Shown here: piece by piece, positions 6,158-12,266 of the stretch | Numbering within the stretch: the stretch's first letter is position 1 | Layout of the letters: each line of letters starts with the position of its first letter | NCBI GenBank assembly: GCA_046293175.1 | Contig: JBKBPM010000002.1 | Coordinates: 19,176 to 83,175, forward strand | Direction of reading: 5' to 3' | Source of the DNA: Minisyncoccia bacterium | GTDB taxonomy: Bacteria > Patescibacteriota > Minisyncoccia > Phycocordibacterales > UBA918 | DNA: 64,000 nucleotides | Program-made: the position numbers and the translations under genes | The notes under the pieces: generated by a model | Told to the model about the DNA's origin: nothing | The model's database searches: none | Seen by the model: only the letters and a program-made list of their open reading frames with translations

Positions 6158-6808
6158 TTAGGAAGTAGGAGTAGTTGTCTCGGCCGGGACAAGACCGCTT
6201 GGTGTAGCACCATCACCTAGGGGAGTGTTGTCGGTGCCTTCGGTATTGCTATCTGTAGTTTCAGTAACTGCCTCAGAGCTGGTAGCCGTGGTAGTAGCGG
6301 GGGTCTCAGGAACAGGTGGTGGGGTCGGCGCATCTGCTGGAGTGAGTCCACCATTTGGACGGAGGTCACTACTCTGAACTGGAACCGTGATGGTGCTTTC
6401 GCCTTCGCGCACTTCGCCGCGATTGATACGTTCATTGCGTTCGTTTACGACCGCCACCACATCAATCTGACCATTATCGCTCATCCCAATTCCGACCCCA
6501 GCACCACACAGAAGAAGGACAATGCTCAGTGTCCACATGAGTGAACGGCGACCACGCGACACCGCCTTTCGCTGTTCGCTGATTGAGGTCGGCGCACGCC
6601 GAGCCGGTTCGGTCCGAGCCGCTGCAACGAAAGTAGTCTCTTTGACCGGTTCAACACGCTTCCGTGGTCCCCGTGGTGCCCGCGAGGCTGGTGCTTCGCC
6701 GTCAGAAACAACCGTCACCCGCTTGCGAGGCGCGCGTTTTTTGGGGACTAGCGTTTCTTCTTCAGTTGTCGTTGTTCGCGCACGCGGCATGTCAAGATAT
6801 TCTAGCAT
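6158..6808 (-). CDS. hypothetical single-pass membrane protein with basic N-terminus and Pro/Thr-rich extracytoplasmic tail
   Basis: ORF with one predicted TM helix (WTLSIVLLLCGAGVGIG); low-complexity composition; start may be internal Met at 6790. Confidence 0.4.
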   Translation of the reverse strand: MLEYLDMPRARTTTTEEETLVPKKRAPRKRVTVVSDGEAPASRAPRGPRKRVEPVKETTFVAAARTEPARRAPTSISEQRKAVSRGRRSLMWTLSIVLLLCGAGVGIGMSDNGQIDVVAVVNERNERINRGEVREGESTITVPVQSSDLRPNGGLTPADAPTPPPVPETPATTTATSSEAVTETTDSNTEGTDNTPLGDGATPSGLVPAETTTPTS

Positions 6809-6826
6809 TTGTTACACTAGATACAT

Positions 6827-7633
6827 ATGGCTACCACCCTTCTTATCAACATCTTTCTTTTTGCACTGATTATCTTCACACTGTCGACACTTATCTTCTT
6901 ATACTCAGCCCACAAAGAGGATATGAGTGTGATGGACATAGCGTATGGGCCTTTGTTTGCCATTGGCGCCTGGTCAGCCATTGTGATAACCGAAGGCTAT
7001 TACCCACTTACTCTGCTCGTTGCCACACTCATCACGCTCTGGGCACTGCGACTTGGTGTGCGTATCTGGCGCAAAAATCACGAGAAGCCCGAAGACGCCC
7101 GCTATGCCGCTTGGCGCCAAGCCTGGATGCGGCAAGGTCGGCAATACTTCCTCATACGCAGTTACCTGCAGGTAAATTTATTCCAGGGATTGATTATCTG
7201 TATCATCGCACTGCCGTTTATCGTCACGCTCTCAGCTGGCGACGCACACGGTACCTGGCAGACGGCGGTCGGTGCGCTTCTCATGCTCTTTGGACTCGCT
7301 TATGAAACCACGGCTGACTGGCAGCTGGATGCCTTCCTCGCGCGCAAGCGGTCTGGCATTGAGGCAGCTACCATCATGACCTCCGGACTCTTCCGCTATA
7401 GTCGCCGACCCAATTATTTTGGTGAGGTCTTGATCTGGGTTGGGCTCGCTATGATGGCGTATCCTCTCCCCTACGGAGAATGGGCCATACTCAGTCCACT
7501 CCTCATCTGGTACATCGTGACCCGTGTCACCGGACCAATGCTTGAAAAAATCTTTTTGGAAAAATATCCCGATGCCTACCAAGCCTACATGGCCCGTACC
7601 AACTATTTTATTCCTGGCAAACCACGTGAATAA
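6827..7633 (+). CDS. DUF1295 / ICMT-like (steroid 5-alpha-reductase family) polytopic membrane protein
   Basis: 268 aa, multiple TM segments, C-terminal motif LFRYSRRPNYFGE matching the RHPxYxGE signature of this superfamily. Confidence 0.7.
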   Translation: MATTLLINIFLFALIIFTLSTLIFLYSAHKEDMSVMDIAYGPLFAIGAWSAIVITEGYYPLTLLVATLITLWALRLGVRIWRKNHEKPEDARYAAWRQAWMRQGRQYFLIRSYLQVNLFQGLIICIIALPFIVTLSAGDAHGTWQTAVGALLMLFGLAYETTADWQLDAFLARKRSGIEAATIMTSGLFRYSRRPNYFGEVLIWVGLAMMAYPLPYGEWAILSPLLIWYIVTRVTGPMLEKIFLEKYPDAYQAYMARTNYFIPGKPRE

Positions 7634-7650
7634 TAATCACTATATACTAA

Positions 7651-7690
7651 AAACAAGCGGTGCCCACTATTTAGGTGCCGCTTGTTTTAC
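7651..7690. terminator. bidirectional rho-independent terminator shared by convergent genes
   Basis: Stem aagcggtgcc/ggtgccgctt (two G-U pairs) with T-runs on both strands; overlaps stop codon of the minus-strand DUF2256 gene. Confidence 0.5.
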
Positions 7691-7809
7691 TTCCCCGCCT
7701 TACACCGCTCGCTGCAATAGATAACCTGTTCCCACTGACCGCGGAGCTTCCAGCTTTTGCGATTCGTAAACGGTTTACCACACCGAACACAGAGTTTTGA
7801 ATCTTTCAT
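7687..7809 (-). CDS. DUF2256-like small zinc-ribbon protein (40 aa; below ORF-track cutoff)
   Basis: Translation MKDSKLCVRCGKPFTNRKSWKLRGQWEQVIYCSERCKAGK; CxxC...CxxRC pattern of DUF2256. Confidence 0.55.
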   Translation of the reverse strand: MKDSKLCVRCGKPFTNRKSWKLRGQWEQVIYCSERCKAGK

Positions 7810-7854
7810 TATGCACTTATCGTACGCGTTTTTACTCTTTTGTTCTATCCCCAA

Positions 7855-7883
7855 TTGACAGGCTCCACCATCGCGGTTACTAT
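7855..7883 (+). promoter_or_regulatory. sigma70-like promoter (TTGACA-17-TACTAT) followed by 5'UTR hairpin 7892-7913
   Basis: Perfect -35, 17-nt spacer, TAnnnT -10; hairpin ccgctcta/tagagcgg; GAGGA RBS before ATG 7941. Confidence 0.4.
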
Positions 7884-7940
7884 CGCAGGTTCCGCTCTAC
7901 CGGTATAGAGCGGAAGTATGAAGCAAAGAAACGAGGATAA

Positions 7941-8189
7941 ATGCAGATGCTAACCACAACACAGCCCACCACGACCCCGCGGGGCCAAACGAGGGCGTTT
8001 CGGATCTTTGAGGAGATCCGCTCGATCCTGCCGATCGCCGAGCGGGTGCGGCAGCGGTGGCAGAAGCGACCGGTGGCCGCACTGAACCGCGAACAGCTGA
8101 TCGACCAGCTTGTGCGCGAGCATCATCTCCATTGCCATGGAGCATGTGGTAGCTGTCGCCACACTATCCAAGACATCTTCAGCGACTAG
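7941..8189 (+). CDS. hypothetical small protein with C-terminal His/Cys cluster (HHLHCHGACGSCRH), in high-GC islet
   Basis: 82 aa ORF with own promoter, RBS and terminator; GC content far above surroundings. Confidence 0.45.
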   Translation: MQMLTTTQPTTTPRGQTRAFRIFEEIRSILPIAERVRQRWQKRPVAALNREQLIDQLVREHHLHCHGACGSCRHTIQDIFSD

Positions 8190-8220
8190 CGCCGACGCGG
8201 TGCCAGCCTGAACACGACGC

Positions 8221-8251
8221 GGCCGAAGGGAACCCCTTCGGCCGTTTTTTA
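8221..8251. terminator. rho-independent terminator (bidirectional)
   Basis: ggccgaagggaaccccttcggcc hairpin followed by TTTTTT. Confidence 0.7.
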
Positions 8252-8314
8252 TTTCTGATATAAAATACCCCCCGACCGTTCCCGGTCGGGGTGATTTCTT
8301 TTCTTGCAGCCAGA

Positions 8315-8635
8315 TTAGGCGGCAATGGCAGGGACGAGGGTAAACTGCTCCGGCGGTTCCTCCTTGAACCGCGGCAGGTCAGCTGGAAGGTACGTCATGC
8401 GCCAGCCGAGCACCAGCATGATGCGGTCGAGCGTCCAGGCCGTGGGACGCCTCGTCACACCATTGAGCAGATTGTTCATGGTCGACACGCCGACATACGC
8501 TTCCTTGGCGATGTCTTCGAGTGTGCGGCCATTGCGCAGTGCTATGCGCAACATCCACTTCACCATGCTGACGCGCATTTGGAACAGCGCTTCGGCTTCG
8601 GCGAAGCCTTCGGGGTCAGTTTCGACATACTTCAC
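8315..8635 (-). CDS. helix-turn-helix (XRE/Cro-like) transcriptional regulator, in high-GC islet
   Basis: 106 aa; RTLEDIAKEAYVGVSTMNNLLNG HTH-like segment; convergent with 7941..8189. Confidence 0.55.
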   Translation of the reverse strand: MKYVETDPEGFAEAEALFQMRVSMVKWMLRIALRNGRTLEDIAKEAYVGVSTMNNLLNGVTRRPTAWTLDRIMLVLGWRMTYLPADLPRFKEEPPEQFTLVPAIAA

Positions 8636-8815
8636 AGTGTAGTCCTTTCCTCTGGGAACAAAATCTTATGCGAAGCATTATATCACAAAATTATTAAAAT
8701 GCAATAGTTCATCATTAGACTTAAATGTACTTCTCCTACGAAGTGGGCTTTACGAATACAAATATACGAAGTACGGTTATAGGTAGCAACAACCATTGAC
8801 CGAAAGGAGGTCACT

Positions 8816-9440
8816 GTGTCGAATCTACCCTCACTCCTTCTCGTGATGCTGGCCATGATCTTTACGGTCTTAGGTAGTAGTCGCTTCAGCACCGCTGAAG
8901 AACCGGTAACTCGGTCACACCTTATCATCGTCGCCGACCATAGTACGAGTATGCATACAAGCGGTGCCATGTTCGTACTCACGAACGCTATCATCACAAC
9001 CCTCGATAGTTTTCCAGGCGACTGCGGTGAAACCAAGGTCACCTATATCGCCTGGGGAGATTCTATCCGATCAGTTTCAGCGAACGTAAATGGCTGATGC
9101 GCGATACAACCTCATGCTCGAGATCGGTGATTTCTCTAATCTCGACCTTAGAGGTACGAATGATAAAGAAGCTATCGAAGTGGCAAATGCTTTAGTCAAC
9201 CCGGAAGAAAAAACGATTGTCGTCTTTCTCACCGACAATGTGTCCGGAGGATATGCGATTGGCCAAGTTAATTATGAACTTCACAAAGTCGGCATCATTC
9301 GACCCGGTGCAGCTGAGAGTCTTCGTGATAAGTTCCTCCCGGGACAAGGAATTGTCCATAACATCGACACAATCGATGATCTCACTGTCATTATGACAGA
9401 TATCCTCGCTTCGGCTCGTAGTTCGCTCTGCCTCGGATGA
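8816..9440 (+). pseudogene. frameshifted paralog of the downstream secreted vWA-like gene (two ORFs 8816..9097 and 9090..9440, +1 shift)
   Basis: GTG start with AAGGAGG RBS; IIVADHSTSM (D-x-S-x-S MIDAS-like) in ORF1, VVFLTDN...ESLRDKFLP...SLCLG in ORF2 collinear with the 9614..10267 protein. Confidence 0.5.
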
Positions 9441-9445
9441 CATCT

Positions 9446-9485
9446 TCGTCCGCCGTTCCTTTTCTGGACCGGCGGGCGCTTTTTA
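9446..9485 (+). terminator. rho-independent terminator, copy 1 of duplicated cassette terminator
   Basis: GC-rich stem (c)cgccg...cggcggg followed by TTTTT; about 90% identical to 10283-10326. Confidence 0.5.
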
Positions 9486-9613
9486 GTTTAAAACTTCATA
9501 CACTCACTTTCGAATGGTGTTTTCTATATCAATGCGGCACACCTCTTTACGAAAATCACCATAAGGAGTACGTTTATAGGTAGCGAAACACTAACCAGGC
9601 AAGGAGACTACCG

Positions 9614-10267
9614 ATGTCTATCCGACTCGCACTCGTCACTTCCTTGGTCGCGATCTTCCTGATCTTTGCTACCAAACCAGTAAAAGCTGATCCGACCATC
9701 GGTCACGTCATTATCCTTGGTGATCAAAGTACGAGCATGTATCCGAGAATAGATGAAGAAACCACCACTCTGGCAACCTTAACCGATATCGTGTTTCAAC
9801 GAGTTGGTATCACGAATGCCCTTCGTGAATTTACTCCCTGGTGCAACAGCGTTCGGGCCACCTATATCGCTTGGGGTGAACTGCAAAGCCAACCCATAAG
9901 CGAGTTGGTAGAACCAGGCAAACATTTTTCAGACGAATTCATCGCGATGATCGATGATGAATCTGACTACCCACATGGTGGTACCGCCCATGGTGCAGCC
10001 CTCACGGAAGGTATCCGGCAAGTGTCGGCGACCGAACCAACTGCCCTGGTGTTCATCACTAATGGTGCAGGGAAACCTGTCTCAAACGTGGACCTCACAC
10101 CAGTCACCGTGTTTAAAGTCTCTTTATTCAATGAAGAGGTGACGGAGTACCTCCGTGACGAGTTCTTGCCAAACGAACCTCATCTCGTGCAGGCAGAAAG
10201 CGCAGCGGACGTATCATTGGCGGTGAAAGCTGCGTTGCAATCGGTCGATACCCTCTGCCTCGGTTAG
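9614..10267 (+). CDS. secreted von Willebrand factor A (vWA)-like domain protein
   Basis: Signal peptide; IILGDQSTSM MIDAS motif; FITNGAG (TDG-like) strand; ends TLCLG like its upstream paralog. Confidence 0.55.
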   Translation: MSIRLALVTSLVAIFLIFATKPVKADPTIGHVIILGDQSTSMYPRIDEETTTLATLTDIVFQRVGITNALREFTPWCNSVRATYIAWGELQSQPISELVEPGKHFSDEFIAMIDDESDYPHGGTAHGAALTEGIRQVSATEPTALVFITNGAGKPVSNVDLTPVTVFKVSLFNEEVTEYLRDEFLPNEPHLVQAESAADVSLAVKAALQSVDTLCLG

Positions 10268-10282
10268 GACAAACATGCTCAT

Positions 10283-10326
10283 GCCCGCCGTTCCTTCTCT
10301 GGACCGGCGGGCGCTTTGTTTTTTGG
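10283..10326 (+). terminator. rho-independent terminator, copy 2
   Basis: gcccgccg...cggcgggc stem followed by gctttgtttttt. Confidence 0.5.
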
Positions 10327-10528: not shown

Positions 10529-10708
10529 ATGGATCTGCCGCTGGCAACGTTCAGCTACGATGAGCTCGAAGCCATTCTGAAAGATGGAGGTTTCGAGCCC
10601 GGAACCAATGAGTTCAATGACGAATTCAGAAGGCGCTATCGCGCCACTGACAACCACACTGGTCGCTACATGGAACGCCAGGAATGGCTCTGCAGCAAAG
10701 CTACATAA
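10529..10708 (+). CDS. hypothetical small protein (59 aa)
   Basis: ATG..TAA ORF MDLPLATFSYDELEAILKDGGFEPG... followed immediately by a terminator; no strong RBS. Confidence 0.25.
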   Translation: MDLPLATFSYDELEAILKDGGFEPGTNEFNDEFRRRYRATDNHTGRYMERQEWLCSKAT

Positions 10709-10728
10709 TCTGCATCGAAACAGTCGAT

Positions 10729-10756
10729 GGGCGCGCCATAGTTCGGCGCGCTTTTC
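10729..10756 (+). terminator. rho-independent terminator
   Basis: gggcgcgcc-atagttc-ggcgcgc then TTTT. Confidence 0.5.
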
Positions 10757-10802
10757 TCTTACCCGCTCTTATTTCTATATTCTGCTATACTCAGAGAAAT
10801 CT

Positions 10803-12266
10803 ATGGACGCGACCATTATCTACCCACACCAACTCTTCCCATTCTGTGACCACACCGCTCTCGCTCCTGGACGTGTCGTATATCTCATTGAAGAACCACT
10901 CATTTTAACTCACAACCCCATTCACCGAGCGAAGCTTGTCCTCCATCGCCTGACTCTCAAAGCCTATGAAAGAGCTCTTTTGCAAGCAGGTTACACCGTC
11001 AACTATATTGAATTACTTAAGTATTCAACTACCGAAGAAATCTTTGCTCGAATTGCCAAAGATGGTGCCAGGACACTCCATATTTGTGATACCACGGATG
11101 ACTACCTTGAACGAGCGATTGATGCTGCATGTGCAACTCTTGGCTTCACCCGCATCTGGTACGAATCACCACTATTCCTTCTGCCAAAGGAAGAAGCTAA
11201 AGAACGGTTTGTAAAAAGCCGCCGGCATATGGCGAACTTCTACAAGAAACTCCGTCAGGATACGGGTATCCTTATGGATGACGGCGAACCACTTGGCGGG
11301 GCGTGGAGTTTTGACAGTGAAAATCGACAGAAGCTCCCAAAGTCAATCACGCTACCAGACGATATTACTCCCTACCCGAGTACACCGGCATATGTAGCGG
11401 CGGTCGCTTGGGTGAAAACCGTACCGGCCGAGCAATACGGCGAGGCCGTGTGGTATCTCCCGATCGACCACCAAGGTGCTGAAACATTTTTACATGATTT
11501 TTTGGTCAAACGATTTGCGCAGTTTGGACCGTATGAGGACGCCATGACGACCGAACACACCCGGCTCTTTCATTCTCTCCTCTCGCCCCTTATGAATATC
11601 GGTCTCCTCACATCTAAGTACGTAGTTGATACAACTCTTGCCTACGCCAAAACACATGAGGTGCCAATCGCTTCACTTGAGGGCTTTATCCGGCAGATTA
11701 TCGGCTGGCGGGAATTTATTCGTGCGAGCTACGAAGTCGATGGACGAGTAATGCGTGGTCGGAACTTTTTTAAGCACAAGCGGAGGCTGCCTGCTACATG
11801 GTGGACTGGCACCACGGGACTCCTGCCACTTGATACCACTATCTCGCGCGTTCTCCAATATGGGTACACACACCATATCGAACGACTGATGGTCGCCGGG
11901 AATCTCATGTTGCTCTCGGGCATTCATCCGCACGAGGCCTACCGGTGGTTTATGGGGATGTACCTTGATGCCTATGATTGGGTGATGGTCCCCAACGTCT
12001 ACGGCATGAGCCAATTTGCCGATGGCGGCAGCTTTGCCACGAAGCCCTACATTAGTGGCGCCCTCTATATAAAGAAGATGAGCAACTACCCAAAAGGTGA
12101 CTGGGAAGCCACCTGGACCGCCCTCTACTGGCACTTTATTGCCACGCACCAAGCGGTCTTTCAAAAAAATCATCGCCTCTCAATGATGCCGAAACTCCTT
12201 AAAAAAATGTCGAAAGACACTTACGACGAACATATGCGTCTTGCCGTGCAATGGTTCTACCACTAA
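10803..12266 (+). CDS. cryptochrome/photolyase-related protein (COG3046 / FeS-BCP-like)
   Basis: About 487 aa from Met MDATIIYPHQLF; C-terminal LDAYDWVMVPNVYGMSQFADGG and YGYTHHIERLM motifs typical of photolyase-related family; the 73-codon upstream ORF extension likely not translated. Confidence 0.65.
   Translation: MDATIIYPHQLFPFCDHTALAPGRVVYLIEEPLILTHNPIHRAKLVLHRLTLKAYERALLQAGYTVNYIELLKYSTTEEIFARIAKDGARTLHICDTTDDYLERAIDAACATLGFTRIWYESPLFLLPKEEAKERFVKSRRHMANFYKKLRQDTGILMDDGEPLGGAWSFDSENRQKLPKSITLPDDITPYPSTPAYVAAVAWVKTVPAEQYGEAVWYLPIDHQGAETFLHDFLVKRFAQFGPYEDAMTTEHTRLFHSLLSPLMNIGLLTSKYVVDTTLAYAKTHEVPIASLEGFIRQIIGWREFIRASYEVDGRVMRGRNFFKHKRRLPATWWTGTTGLLPLDTTISRVLQYGYTHHIERLMVAGNLMLLSGIHPHEAYRWFMGMYLDAYDWVMVPNVYGMSQFADGGSFATKPYISGALYIKKMSNYPKGDWEATWTALYWHFIATHQAVFQKNHRLSMMPKLLKKMSKDTYDEHMRLAVQWFYH

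Follow-up and report, generated by a model that had tools for sequence, protein, structure and literature searches.

Horizontally acquired islets are marked by an abrupt compositional shift and atypical codon usage, and both are displayed by two small convergent genes, here called p82 and p106, in a 64,000-nt stretch of DNA from a Minisyncoccia bacterium (contig JBKBPM010000002.1; the whole stretch is hereafter called the window, and positions are counted from its first nucleotide). An earlier note, made from the letters of the window, had taken them for a module recently acquired from a high-GC donor. The locus differs from acquired islets, however, in being syntenic across its lineage, in having no mobility genes, repeats or tRNA, and in showing the shift only at third codon positions. 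In our reading, to which we assign a probability of about 0.6, the patch consists of two independent, long-resident small genes whose high G+C content comes from their third codon positions, and it is not a fresh insertion.

The products and the leader of these genes also have described counterparts. p106 resembles XRE/Cro-CI-type regulators: the four-helix core of its predicted structure (residues ~8–75) superposes on theirs with template modelling (TM) scores of 0.6–0.73, normalised by target length, it is small, and its gene is divergent from its likely target gene. It differs from them in a sequence match below the Pfam cut-offs and in a lineage-specific, invariant tail that is predicted to be disordered (GWRxTYLPADLPR). 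p82 can be compared with BFD-like [2Fe-2S] and Nfu CxxC proteins, which have G-[AT]-C-G-S-C at a helix start; there is a weak alignment of its C-terminus, HGACGSCRHTIQDIF, to the final 20 positions of Fer2_BFD, and its family consensus has four cysteines starting with C-x-C. In contrast to those domains, the cysteine pairs are 2–5 rather than ~30 residues apart and the copy in the window is without the first cysteine, while the Fer2_BFD match, with 14.9 bits where 26 are required, was obtained for just 2 of the 34 family members; p82 does not qualify as a BFD-like [2Fe-2S] domain. Stem-loops at the 5′ terminus that stabilise mRNA are known from the ompA leader and from Bacillus transcripts of the ermC/aprE type. 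Like these, the hairpin in the p82 leader shows conservation of structure more than of sequence and starts 6–7 nt past the −10 hexamer, on the base predicted to be transcribed first or directly beside it; unlike them, it has a loop, NNGGTA, that is also conserved in closer lineages, which could mean a protein-binding site.

Base composition of the locus

With a G+C content of 59.7%, positions 7941–8640 exceed every other 700-bp window of the 64 kb (mean 48.1%, standard deviation (s.d.) 3.2%). The compositional anomaly pointed out in the earlier note is thus real and, as stated there, abrupt, with the step up at the start codon of p82 and the step down at the start codon of the convergent p106; its size had been overestimated at 65%, as even 200-bp windows reach 0.61–0.62 at most. 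The promoter and untranslated DNA flanking the patch on both sides is average or lower in G+C (38% at 8600–8799), and the elevation is limited to the coding sequences and terminators of the two genes.

G+C contents at the first, second and third codon positions (GC1, GC2 and GC3) are 0.63, 0.46 and 0.75 for p82 (GC3 0.747) and 0.62, 0.42 and 0.76 for p106. GC1 and GC2 are ordinary. Over 78 open reading frames (ORFs) of the window, GC3 averages 0.485 with an s.d. of 0.073; p82 and p106 each lie more than 3.5 s.d. above this mean, and the next highest value is 0.589. Because the GC excess is a third-codon-position effect, amino-acid composition is not its cause. Both genes favour CTG, CGC/CGG, GCC, GGC, GTG and CCG, whereas the codon table of the window shows a preference for CGT, GGT, CCA and CTT/CTC. 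In base composition and codon usage, the patch is therefore as atypical as a recently acquired islet would be.

The long ORFs antisense to p82 and p106, at 8325–8642 (+), 8291–8707 (+) and 7897–8145 (−), were rejected as genes, their GC1 being lower than GC2, opposite to real genes. They are by-products of the high GC3: their third positions are shared with those of the real genes, and TTA, CTA and TCA are hence avoided. They stay open in the related contig L005 as well. A second GC peak of the window, at 6500–6800 (0.60–0.62), has a different cause, namely the gene at 6158–6808 (−), which encodes a low-complexity membrane protein rich in Pro, Thr, Ala and Arg and has GC1 and GC2 of 0.65 and 0.59 with an ordinary GC3 of 0.465.

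Distribution and age

Contigs related to the window, numbered L001 onward, are 74–90% identical to it in nucleotide sequence and so do not come from the same strain. In L001 and L002, the gene order is DUF1295, DUF2256, p82 (96% identical), p106 (94%) and a vWA-like gene, and the same order is found in L004–L008, where the two proteins are 38% and 81% identical to those of the window. Both genes are present in L009 and also in L003, the most diverged contig (p106 62% identical), where they keep their relative orientation with extra genes inserted. Every relative that covers the site has p82 there, and the islet is thus not absent from close relatives; p106 is at the site in five lineages and missing in L010, L013 and L016, which have p82 without it. 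With its occurrences in other genomic contexts (L015, L019, L140, L141, L176 and L177), p82 is found without adjacent p106 in at least nine lineages, and hence does not depend on it. p82 accompanies p106 on every contig that is long enough to show it, in L003 with one gene between the two. Synonymous divergence (dS) between the window and L005 is 0.6–0.8 for p82, p106 and DUF1295 alike, and against L003 it is saturated. Such same-site orthologues in independent assemblies argue that the pair is native to the lineage and not a recent import.

No signs of mobility were found. There are no flanking repeats and no integrase or other mobility genes at the locus, and the 64-kb window contains no tRNA or tmRNA that might have been an insertion target. 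Phage genomes and viral contigs (IMG/VR) contained no relatives of p82 or p106, and a search with the promoter motif likewise returned none. Among plasmids, which were searched for p106 and not for p82, only weak (≤38% identity), partial matches to unrelated helix-turn-helix (HTH) regulators were obtained.

High GC3 is common to all orthologues, with values of 0.59–0.78 for p82 and 0.67–0.79 for p106. In AT-richer genomes, too, p82 is at or above the local range: in L015 it has a GC3 of 0.66 against 0.28–0.46 in its neighbours; the corresponding values are 0.62 against 0.27–0.50 (with one neighbour at 0.68) in L141 and 0.70 against 0.42–0.65 in L140, and in L019, L176 and L177 the excess is small or absent. 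Its persistence where synonymous divergence is saturated speaks for a maintained bias; selection acting on the mRNA may be behind it, or biased gene conversion beside a recombination-active hypervariable locus. In support of such a bias, p82 coding sequences fold more stably than their synonymous shuffles, with a mean z of about −1.75 where eight control genes give −0.25; this is a modest effect, seen across lineages that are not independent.

The p82 cassette

The features of the locus are listed in Table 1. The promoter of p82, its hairpin, its ribosome-binding site and the terminators are present as the earlier note had described them, and both small genes are real, each with a promoter and a terminator of its own.

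Table 1. Positions of features at the p82/p106 locus and of adjoining genes in the window.
Feature	Position	Strand	Remarks
DUF2256 zinc-ribbon gene	7687–7809	−	40 aa from ATG at 7809; Pfam DUF2256 E = 5e-12
Conserved promoter element CTATCCCCAATTGACA	7845–7860	+	includes −35 hexamer TTGACA at 7855–7860
−10 hexamer TACTAT	7878–7883	+	17 nt past −35
Stem-loop at predicted 5′ end of p82 transcript	7890–7915	+	10-bp perfect stem, 6-nt loop
p82 ribosome-binding site GAGGA	7933–7937	+	read off the sequence
p82, 82 aa, C-terminal Cys/His motif (HLHCHGACGSCRH)	7941–8189	+	ORF intact in 34 family members
p82 intrinsic terminator	8219–8255	+	12-bp stem and T tract; also given as 8219–8245
p106 intrinsic terminator	8270–8291	−	9-bp stem; scores on both strands
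p106, 106 aa, predicted XRE-fold HTH and conserved, predicted-disordered C-terminal tail	8315–8635	−	dN/dS, model, Foldseek
Probable p106 promoter	8677–8704	−	TTGCAT (8704–8699), 16 nt, TGaTATAAT; TATAAT at 8682–8677
vWA-like gene, copy 1	8816–9440	+	split over two frames near 9090
vWA-like gene, copy 2	9614–10267	+	217 aa, signal peptide, DxSxS motif

The promoter of p82 agrees with the consensus at 10 of 12 positions, and six terminator-like sites were found where 1.6 would be expected from shuffled sequence. A 16-nt element, CTATCCCCAnTTGACA, has its single occurrence in the window here and recurs exactly in the p82 cassettes of 14 of 18 non-identical relatives (L001, L002, L003, L005, L006, L007, L010, L011, L013, L015, L016, L019, L116 and L140), some of which have just ~25–30% protein identity. 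As for the remaining cassettes, L176 has one mismatch, at the first base, L141 has two, L177 is rearranged, and the contig of L009 stops before the promoter; L058, which is the contig of L007 again, was left out of the count. The −10 hexamer varies as TAnnnT and is spaced by 17 nt in every aligned lineage. In the aligned cassettes with the exact element, and in L141 and L176, the order is kept throughout: element, 17 nt, TAnnnT, 6 nt, stem-loop, GAGG, ORF. The GAGG core of the ribosome-binding site is retained at a similar distance across relatives, and a counterpart of the terminator, with hairpin and T tract, was seen in all five relatives read downstream (L009, L010, L140, L141 and L176). 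Judged by these signals, p82 is a self-contained monocistronic unit of ~360 nt.

The stem of the leader hairpin keeps its structure while its sequence varies (CTCTA/TAGAG, CTGCA/TGCAG, CTGTA/TACAG, CTGGT/ATCAG), and wholly different stem sequences are found in L003, L116, L141 and L176. RNAalifold predicts nine pairs for the leader, five of them with compensatory double changes. Several stem pairs are G·U, and only on the sense strand, as expected of an RNA structure more than of a DNA palindrome. Conservation of the promoter and 5′ leader reaches far past that of the protein. A promoter of the sigma-70 type with an extremely conserved, upstream-extended −35 element would drive p82; some conserved factor would read the CTATCCCCA element, and the stem-loop would act at the RNA level, in mRNA stabilisation or as a protein-binding site.

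Searches with these noncoding elements returned little. An Rfam scan of positions 7400–9000 at E values up to 5 gave no match better than E = 0.11, all weak matches falling on terminators, and no covariance model of a known structured RNA family fits the locus. Scanning metagenomes with the 16-nt promoter motif yielded 120 stretches, with p82 in only seven; the rest look like 15-base chance matches.

Within the coding sequence, 12 nt at 7953–7964, ACAACACAGCCC (codons 5–8, T-T-Q-P), are invariant in eight lineages, synonymous sites included, although the rest of p82 has a dS of 0.3–0.9 among them. In L140 (2170–3575) and L176 (1554–2572), a gene for an ECF-type sigma factor and a downstream gene lie 1.6–3.3 kb from p82; no ECF-type sigma factor gene lies near p82 in the window, where the p82 promoter is sigma-70-like.

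The p82 protein

The p82 family is tiny and is not contained in any described family. Exhaustive searching of 1.84 billion representatives with HMMER yielded no more than 27 members at E ≤ 1e-3, all of 55–93 aa, and a profile search over 5.8 billion clusters found 13 relatives. In an alignment of 34 members, the ORF is intact in all and every indel is in frame. Four residues never vary (C69, C72, I76 and D78) and two hardly do (C65 and G67), and the C-terminal consensus of the family is C-x-C-x(2-5)-C-x2-C-x-H-x-I-x-D-V. In the subgroup to which the window belongs, the first cysteine is replaced, with neighbouring His residues present (HLHCHGACGSCRH). The Cys/His cluster noticed in the earlier note does exist, though at residues 61–74 and not at the end of the protein, which reads ...CRHTIQDIFSD. 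Ratios of nonsynonymous to synonymous divergence (dN/dS) are 0.43–1.0, and changes are spread equally over codon positions 1, 2 and 3 (0.38, 0.37 and 0.35); apart from its C-terminal knuckle, p82 evolves fast. From its motif, the knuckle may bind a metal, as Zn or as an Fe-S cluster.

Searches of Pfam, NCBIfam, PHROGs and PADLOC with p82 gave no match above cut-off, and sub-threshold Pfam and NCBIfam matches occur in at most 2 of the 34 members. One of them, to the NCBIfam "RDAC family", was rejected since it is below cut-off and confined to the window copy and the one that is 96% identical to it. A profile search of the PDB with the family gave no credible match; the hit to a designer PPR protein (E = 1e-9) was discarded as the sum of eight repeats, each with an i-E of at least 190. 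Foldseek returned no structural neighbour for the AlphaFold model of p82, which is too weak to trust.

The p106 protein

In its own frame, p106 has clearly evolved under purifying selection, with a dN/dS of 0.08–0.29, and third positions change 3–6 times as often as first and second positions. Its AF2 model has a predicted local distance difference test (pLDDT) score of ~88–92 over residues 21–60 and shows a helical HTH DNA-binding fold. Nearly all of the Foldseek matches shown from the PDB are of the XRE type (SinR, HipB, C.Esp1396I, DdrO, HigA2 and 434 Cro), with a probability of 1.00 at E values of 0.03 or worse. A profile search of the PDB gave an E of only ~0.03, and p106 would not be assigned to the XRE family by its Pfam gathering score. 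Judged by its predicted fold, p106 is an XRE-type regulator, and the earlier note was right to call it one and to describe it as divergent from the vWA-like genes. Residues 78–89 (WRxTxLPADLPR) are invariant in 5 of 5 family members, yet predicted to be disordered; this tail may be a docking motif. Relatives of p106 were found in 4 clusters among 5.8 billion, and a scan of GTDB genomes with the p106 alignment gave no match.

The probable promoter of p106, with an extended −10 element, was read off the sequence and lies under the −35 threshold of the promoter scanner. The block is conserved in the window, L001, L005 and L009, and L003 has a similar one with TGgTATAGT. p106 would be an XRE regulator of the dimeric type, expressed from this promoter and ending at its own terminator, and would repress its own promoter, that of the divergent vWA-like gene, or both. 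From the way the genes are arranged in four lineages, p106 may plausibly regulate the divergent vWA-like gene. The p82 hairpin and the CTATCCCCA element were considered as operators for p106 and rejected, as both are conserved in lineages without adjacent p106 (the hairpin, for example, in L010). In the case of the hairpin, L003 argues to the same effect: its p106 has a nearly identical recognition helix, and its hairpin sequence is completely different.

Weighing the explanations

Nothing but the compositional step itself speaks for an assembly chimera at the GC boundaries, a possibility the earlier note had raised. The gene order across both boundaries is repeated in independent assemblies (the NCBI metagenome-assembled genome (MAG) L001 and the Logan contigs L002 and L005–L008), and that across the left boundary also in ENA contigs L016–L018, with differing samples and pipelines; this colinearity excludes a chimera for all practical purposes. 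An islet recently acquired from a high-GC donor, possibly a phage remnant, is scarcely credible. It would account for the elevated GC3 of both genes and for the absence of p106 from some relatives, but the genes are orthologous and syntenic across related CPR (candidate phyla radiation)/Saccharibacteria assemblies at a dS of 0.4 to >2, with GC3 high throughout. Repeats, tRNA, an integrase and phage or viral relatives were all missing from the searches described above, and a GC rise limited to coding sequences and terminators does not suit an inserted segment. The homologue search thus bore out what the earlier note had named as contradicting its proposal, namely a pair native to the lineage. 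An ancient import is unlikely too, although it is a serious contender: the genes would have come from a very GC-rich donor, such as an actinobacterial host of Saccharibacteria, and their GC3 would have been decaying since, with amelioration still incomplete. Their codon choice (CTG, CGC/CGG, GCC, GGC, CCG) is typical of high-GC genomes and unlike that of the window, and the most diverged copies have lower GC3 (0.59 and 0.67 in L003, 0.53 in L177). Recent third-position changes also run strongly from GC to AT, with GC→AT:AT→GC counts of 13:0 and 19:1 for p82 and of 16:7 and 21:7 for p106 (~29–40 against 7–8 for the islet), and far less so in the DUF1295 control (27:22 in a five-taxon set, 27:13 in a seven-taxon set); a rough calculation from the singleton counts gives an equilibrium GC3 of ~0.4–0.57, close to the genome value. 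These counts are of polarised singletons, which include transient variants, and parsimony inflates common-to-rare changes; the excess speaks against a simple equilibrium, and it fits decay from a GC-richer ancestor no better than a maintained bias in which mutations are supplied with a bias towards AT and purged afterwards. Against an ancient import stand the lack, in the searches made, of any homologue outside CPR-like contexts and in phages or viral contigs, the native look of the deeply conserved promoter and 5′ leader of p82, and the extent of the p82 family, which goes down to ~25% protein identity with saturated synonymous sites while GC3 is still above that of the neighbours in most lineages. 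A maintained, gene-specific bias therefore seems to us somewhat likelier than an ancient import, a preference we do not hold strongly, and recent import very unlikely.

The GC→AT excess is one of the points that weigh against our reading of two independent, long-resident genes, and the others concern the two proteins. p82 of the window has three of the four cysteines of its family, metal binding by p82 is deduced from the motif, and the AlphaFold model, with three helices, has a pLDDT of 59.7. p106 stays under the Pfam cut-offs (HTH_31 20.6 against 27 bits, HTH_3 18.8 against 23, HTH_26 also below), positions 8636–8815 contain no convincing conserved palindrome as an operator for it, and the blocks upstream of the vWA-like gene (CTTTACGAATA ... 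GTACGGTTATAGGTAG) persist in L010, which is without p106. Two further explanations dispute the independence or the protein nature of the genes. That p82 and p106 form an interacting pair of regulator and antagonist, like SinR and SinI or a toxin and antitoxin, with p82 binding the p106 tail in a metal- or redox-responsive manner, is decidedly unlikely. The constant presence of p82 next to p106 would suit it, as would the invariant W78–R89 segment in a tail predicted to be disordered, the DNA-binding domain of SinR as best fold match of p106, and the small and (in a weak model) helical p82. The genes are convergent, however, each with a separate promoter and terminator; p82 occurs so often without adjacent p106, evolves fast where p106 is conserved, and matches no toxin family and nothing in PADLOC. 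A toxin–antitoxin operon, as the earlier note had considered, is contradicted by this arrangement together with the occurrence of p82 without p106: the co-directional, co-transcribed adjacent genes of type II systems are not seen, nor are a toxin-family partner and strict co-occurrence. That the p82 unit is mainly a structured RNA, a small RNA or dual-function RNA with a secondary ORF, is more improbable still. The even spread of substitutions over codon positions with a dN/dS of up to 1.0 would agree with it, as would promoter, stem-loop and terminator that are more conserved than the protein, coding sequences whose folding is more stable, in 8 of 9 lineages, than that of synonymous-codon shuffles, and the invariance of ACAACACAGCCC. 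Yet the ORF is intact in 34 of 34 members with all indels in frame, four residues of the knuckle region are invariant, a ribosome-binding site stands at the proper distance in every lineage, Rfam has no match at p82, and the folding excess is modest among lineages that are not independent. We thus retain two independent small protein-coding genes that have long been resident at the locus.

Neighbouring genes and the variable segment

The DUF2256 gene stands back to back with the p82 promoter and adjoins p82 in most relatives. The protein of the neighbouring DUF1295 gene is 89–91% identical to MAG proteins labelled Candidatus Saccharibacteria, Parcubacteria or "uncultured bacterium", and the surroundings include genes for a phosphoketolase, an acetate kinase and a SET-domain protein as well as, in relatives, infC-rpmI-rplT. 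On these grounds the window belongs to a CPR genome, probably one of the Saccharibacteria. What the earlier note called a vWA cassette does carry a DxSxS motif, on which the label is based, and has no Pfam match. Copy 1 consists of ORFs of 93 and 116 aa where L001 has a single gene of 204 aa at the orthologous position; it is either a frameshifted pseudogene or the result of a sequencing error.

Between close relatives, the vWA-like secreted proteins (~8700–10300 of the window against 10750–11600 of L001) share 33–68% protein identity, whereas their flanking genes share 97–99%. The comparison of the window with L001 gives a mosaic of blocks with 99% and 78–90% identity, dropping to 40–50% rightwards from ~8700, and the mosaic to the left of the vWA-like genes suggests frequent homologous recombination. 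L009 and L010 agree to 99% up to the end of the p82 terminator; thereafter, p106 is present in L009 only, and the vWA-like genes are 66% identical. In L013 and L016, unrelated convergent genes take the place of p106. By these comparisons, p106 belongs to a variable segment that holds the hypervariable vWA-like secreted proteins.

Some further observations were made in these regions. Between p106 and the vWA-like gene, three TACGAA[G/T] repeats with a spacing of 14 bp (8737, 8751 and 8765) occupy 8737–8776 (+) and are followed by TACGG; only the middle one, which lies within CTTTACGAATA, is conserved in relatives. At 8797–8813 (+), TGACC-GAAAGGA-GGTCA makes up a hairpin that shares bases with the ribosome-binding site of vWA-like copy 1; it is identical in L005 and might sequester that site. 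A photolyase-related (DPRP) gene is located at 10584–12266 (+), 2.4 kb from the DUF2256/p82 neighbourhood, and at distant p82 loci (L003, L019, L140 and L141) genes for DUF2256, VF530, glyoxalase, AhpC/redoxin and Exo_endo_phos are found repeatedly at distances of a few kilobases; the surroundings of p82 may be a stress or repair neighbourhood. In L003 (320–7240), the p106/p82 region lies amid defence-type genes (PycTM effector domain, NYN nuclease, RhuM), and the gene between p106 and p82 is a SIMPL gene.

Significance

The finding is mostly an ordinary one, a small regulatory locus that is native to a CPR genome. Two things stand out: a fast-evolving, unannotated mini-protein has a near-invariant promoter element and a covarying 5′ hairpin, and the GC3 anomaly is long-lived. 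A more ambitious picture would make p82 a not yet described small metalloprotein cassette found across CPR, acting through p106 as a redox or metal stress switch on vWA-like surface proteins for host attachment, with mRNA selection keeping GC3 high; we regard this as a long shot.

A sharp GC step around two small genes resembles a textbook case of fresh import, and composition alone would lead to a wrong call for genes that are, in our reading, long resident and vertically inherited. As the GC3 excess of both genes is found in several lineages, AT-richer genomes among them, the locus is a compact system in which amelioration could be told apart from selection or biased gene conversion. The p82 promoter and leader, conserved far past the protein, provide a handle on the control of transcription in CPR/Saccharibacteria, where few regulators are known.

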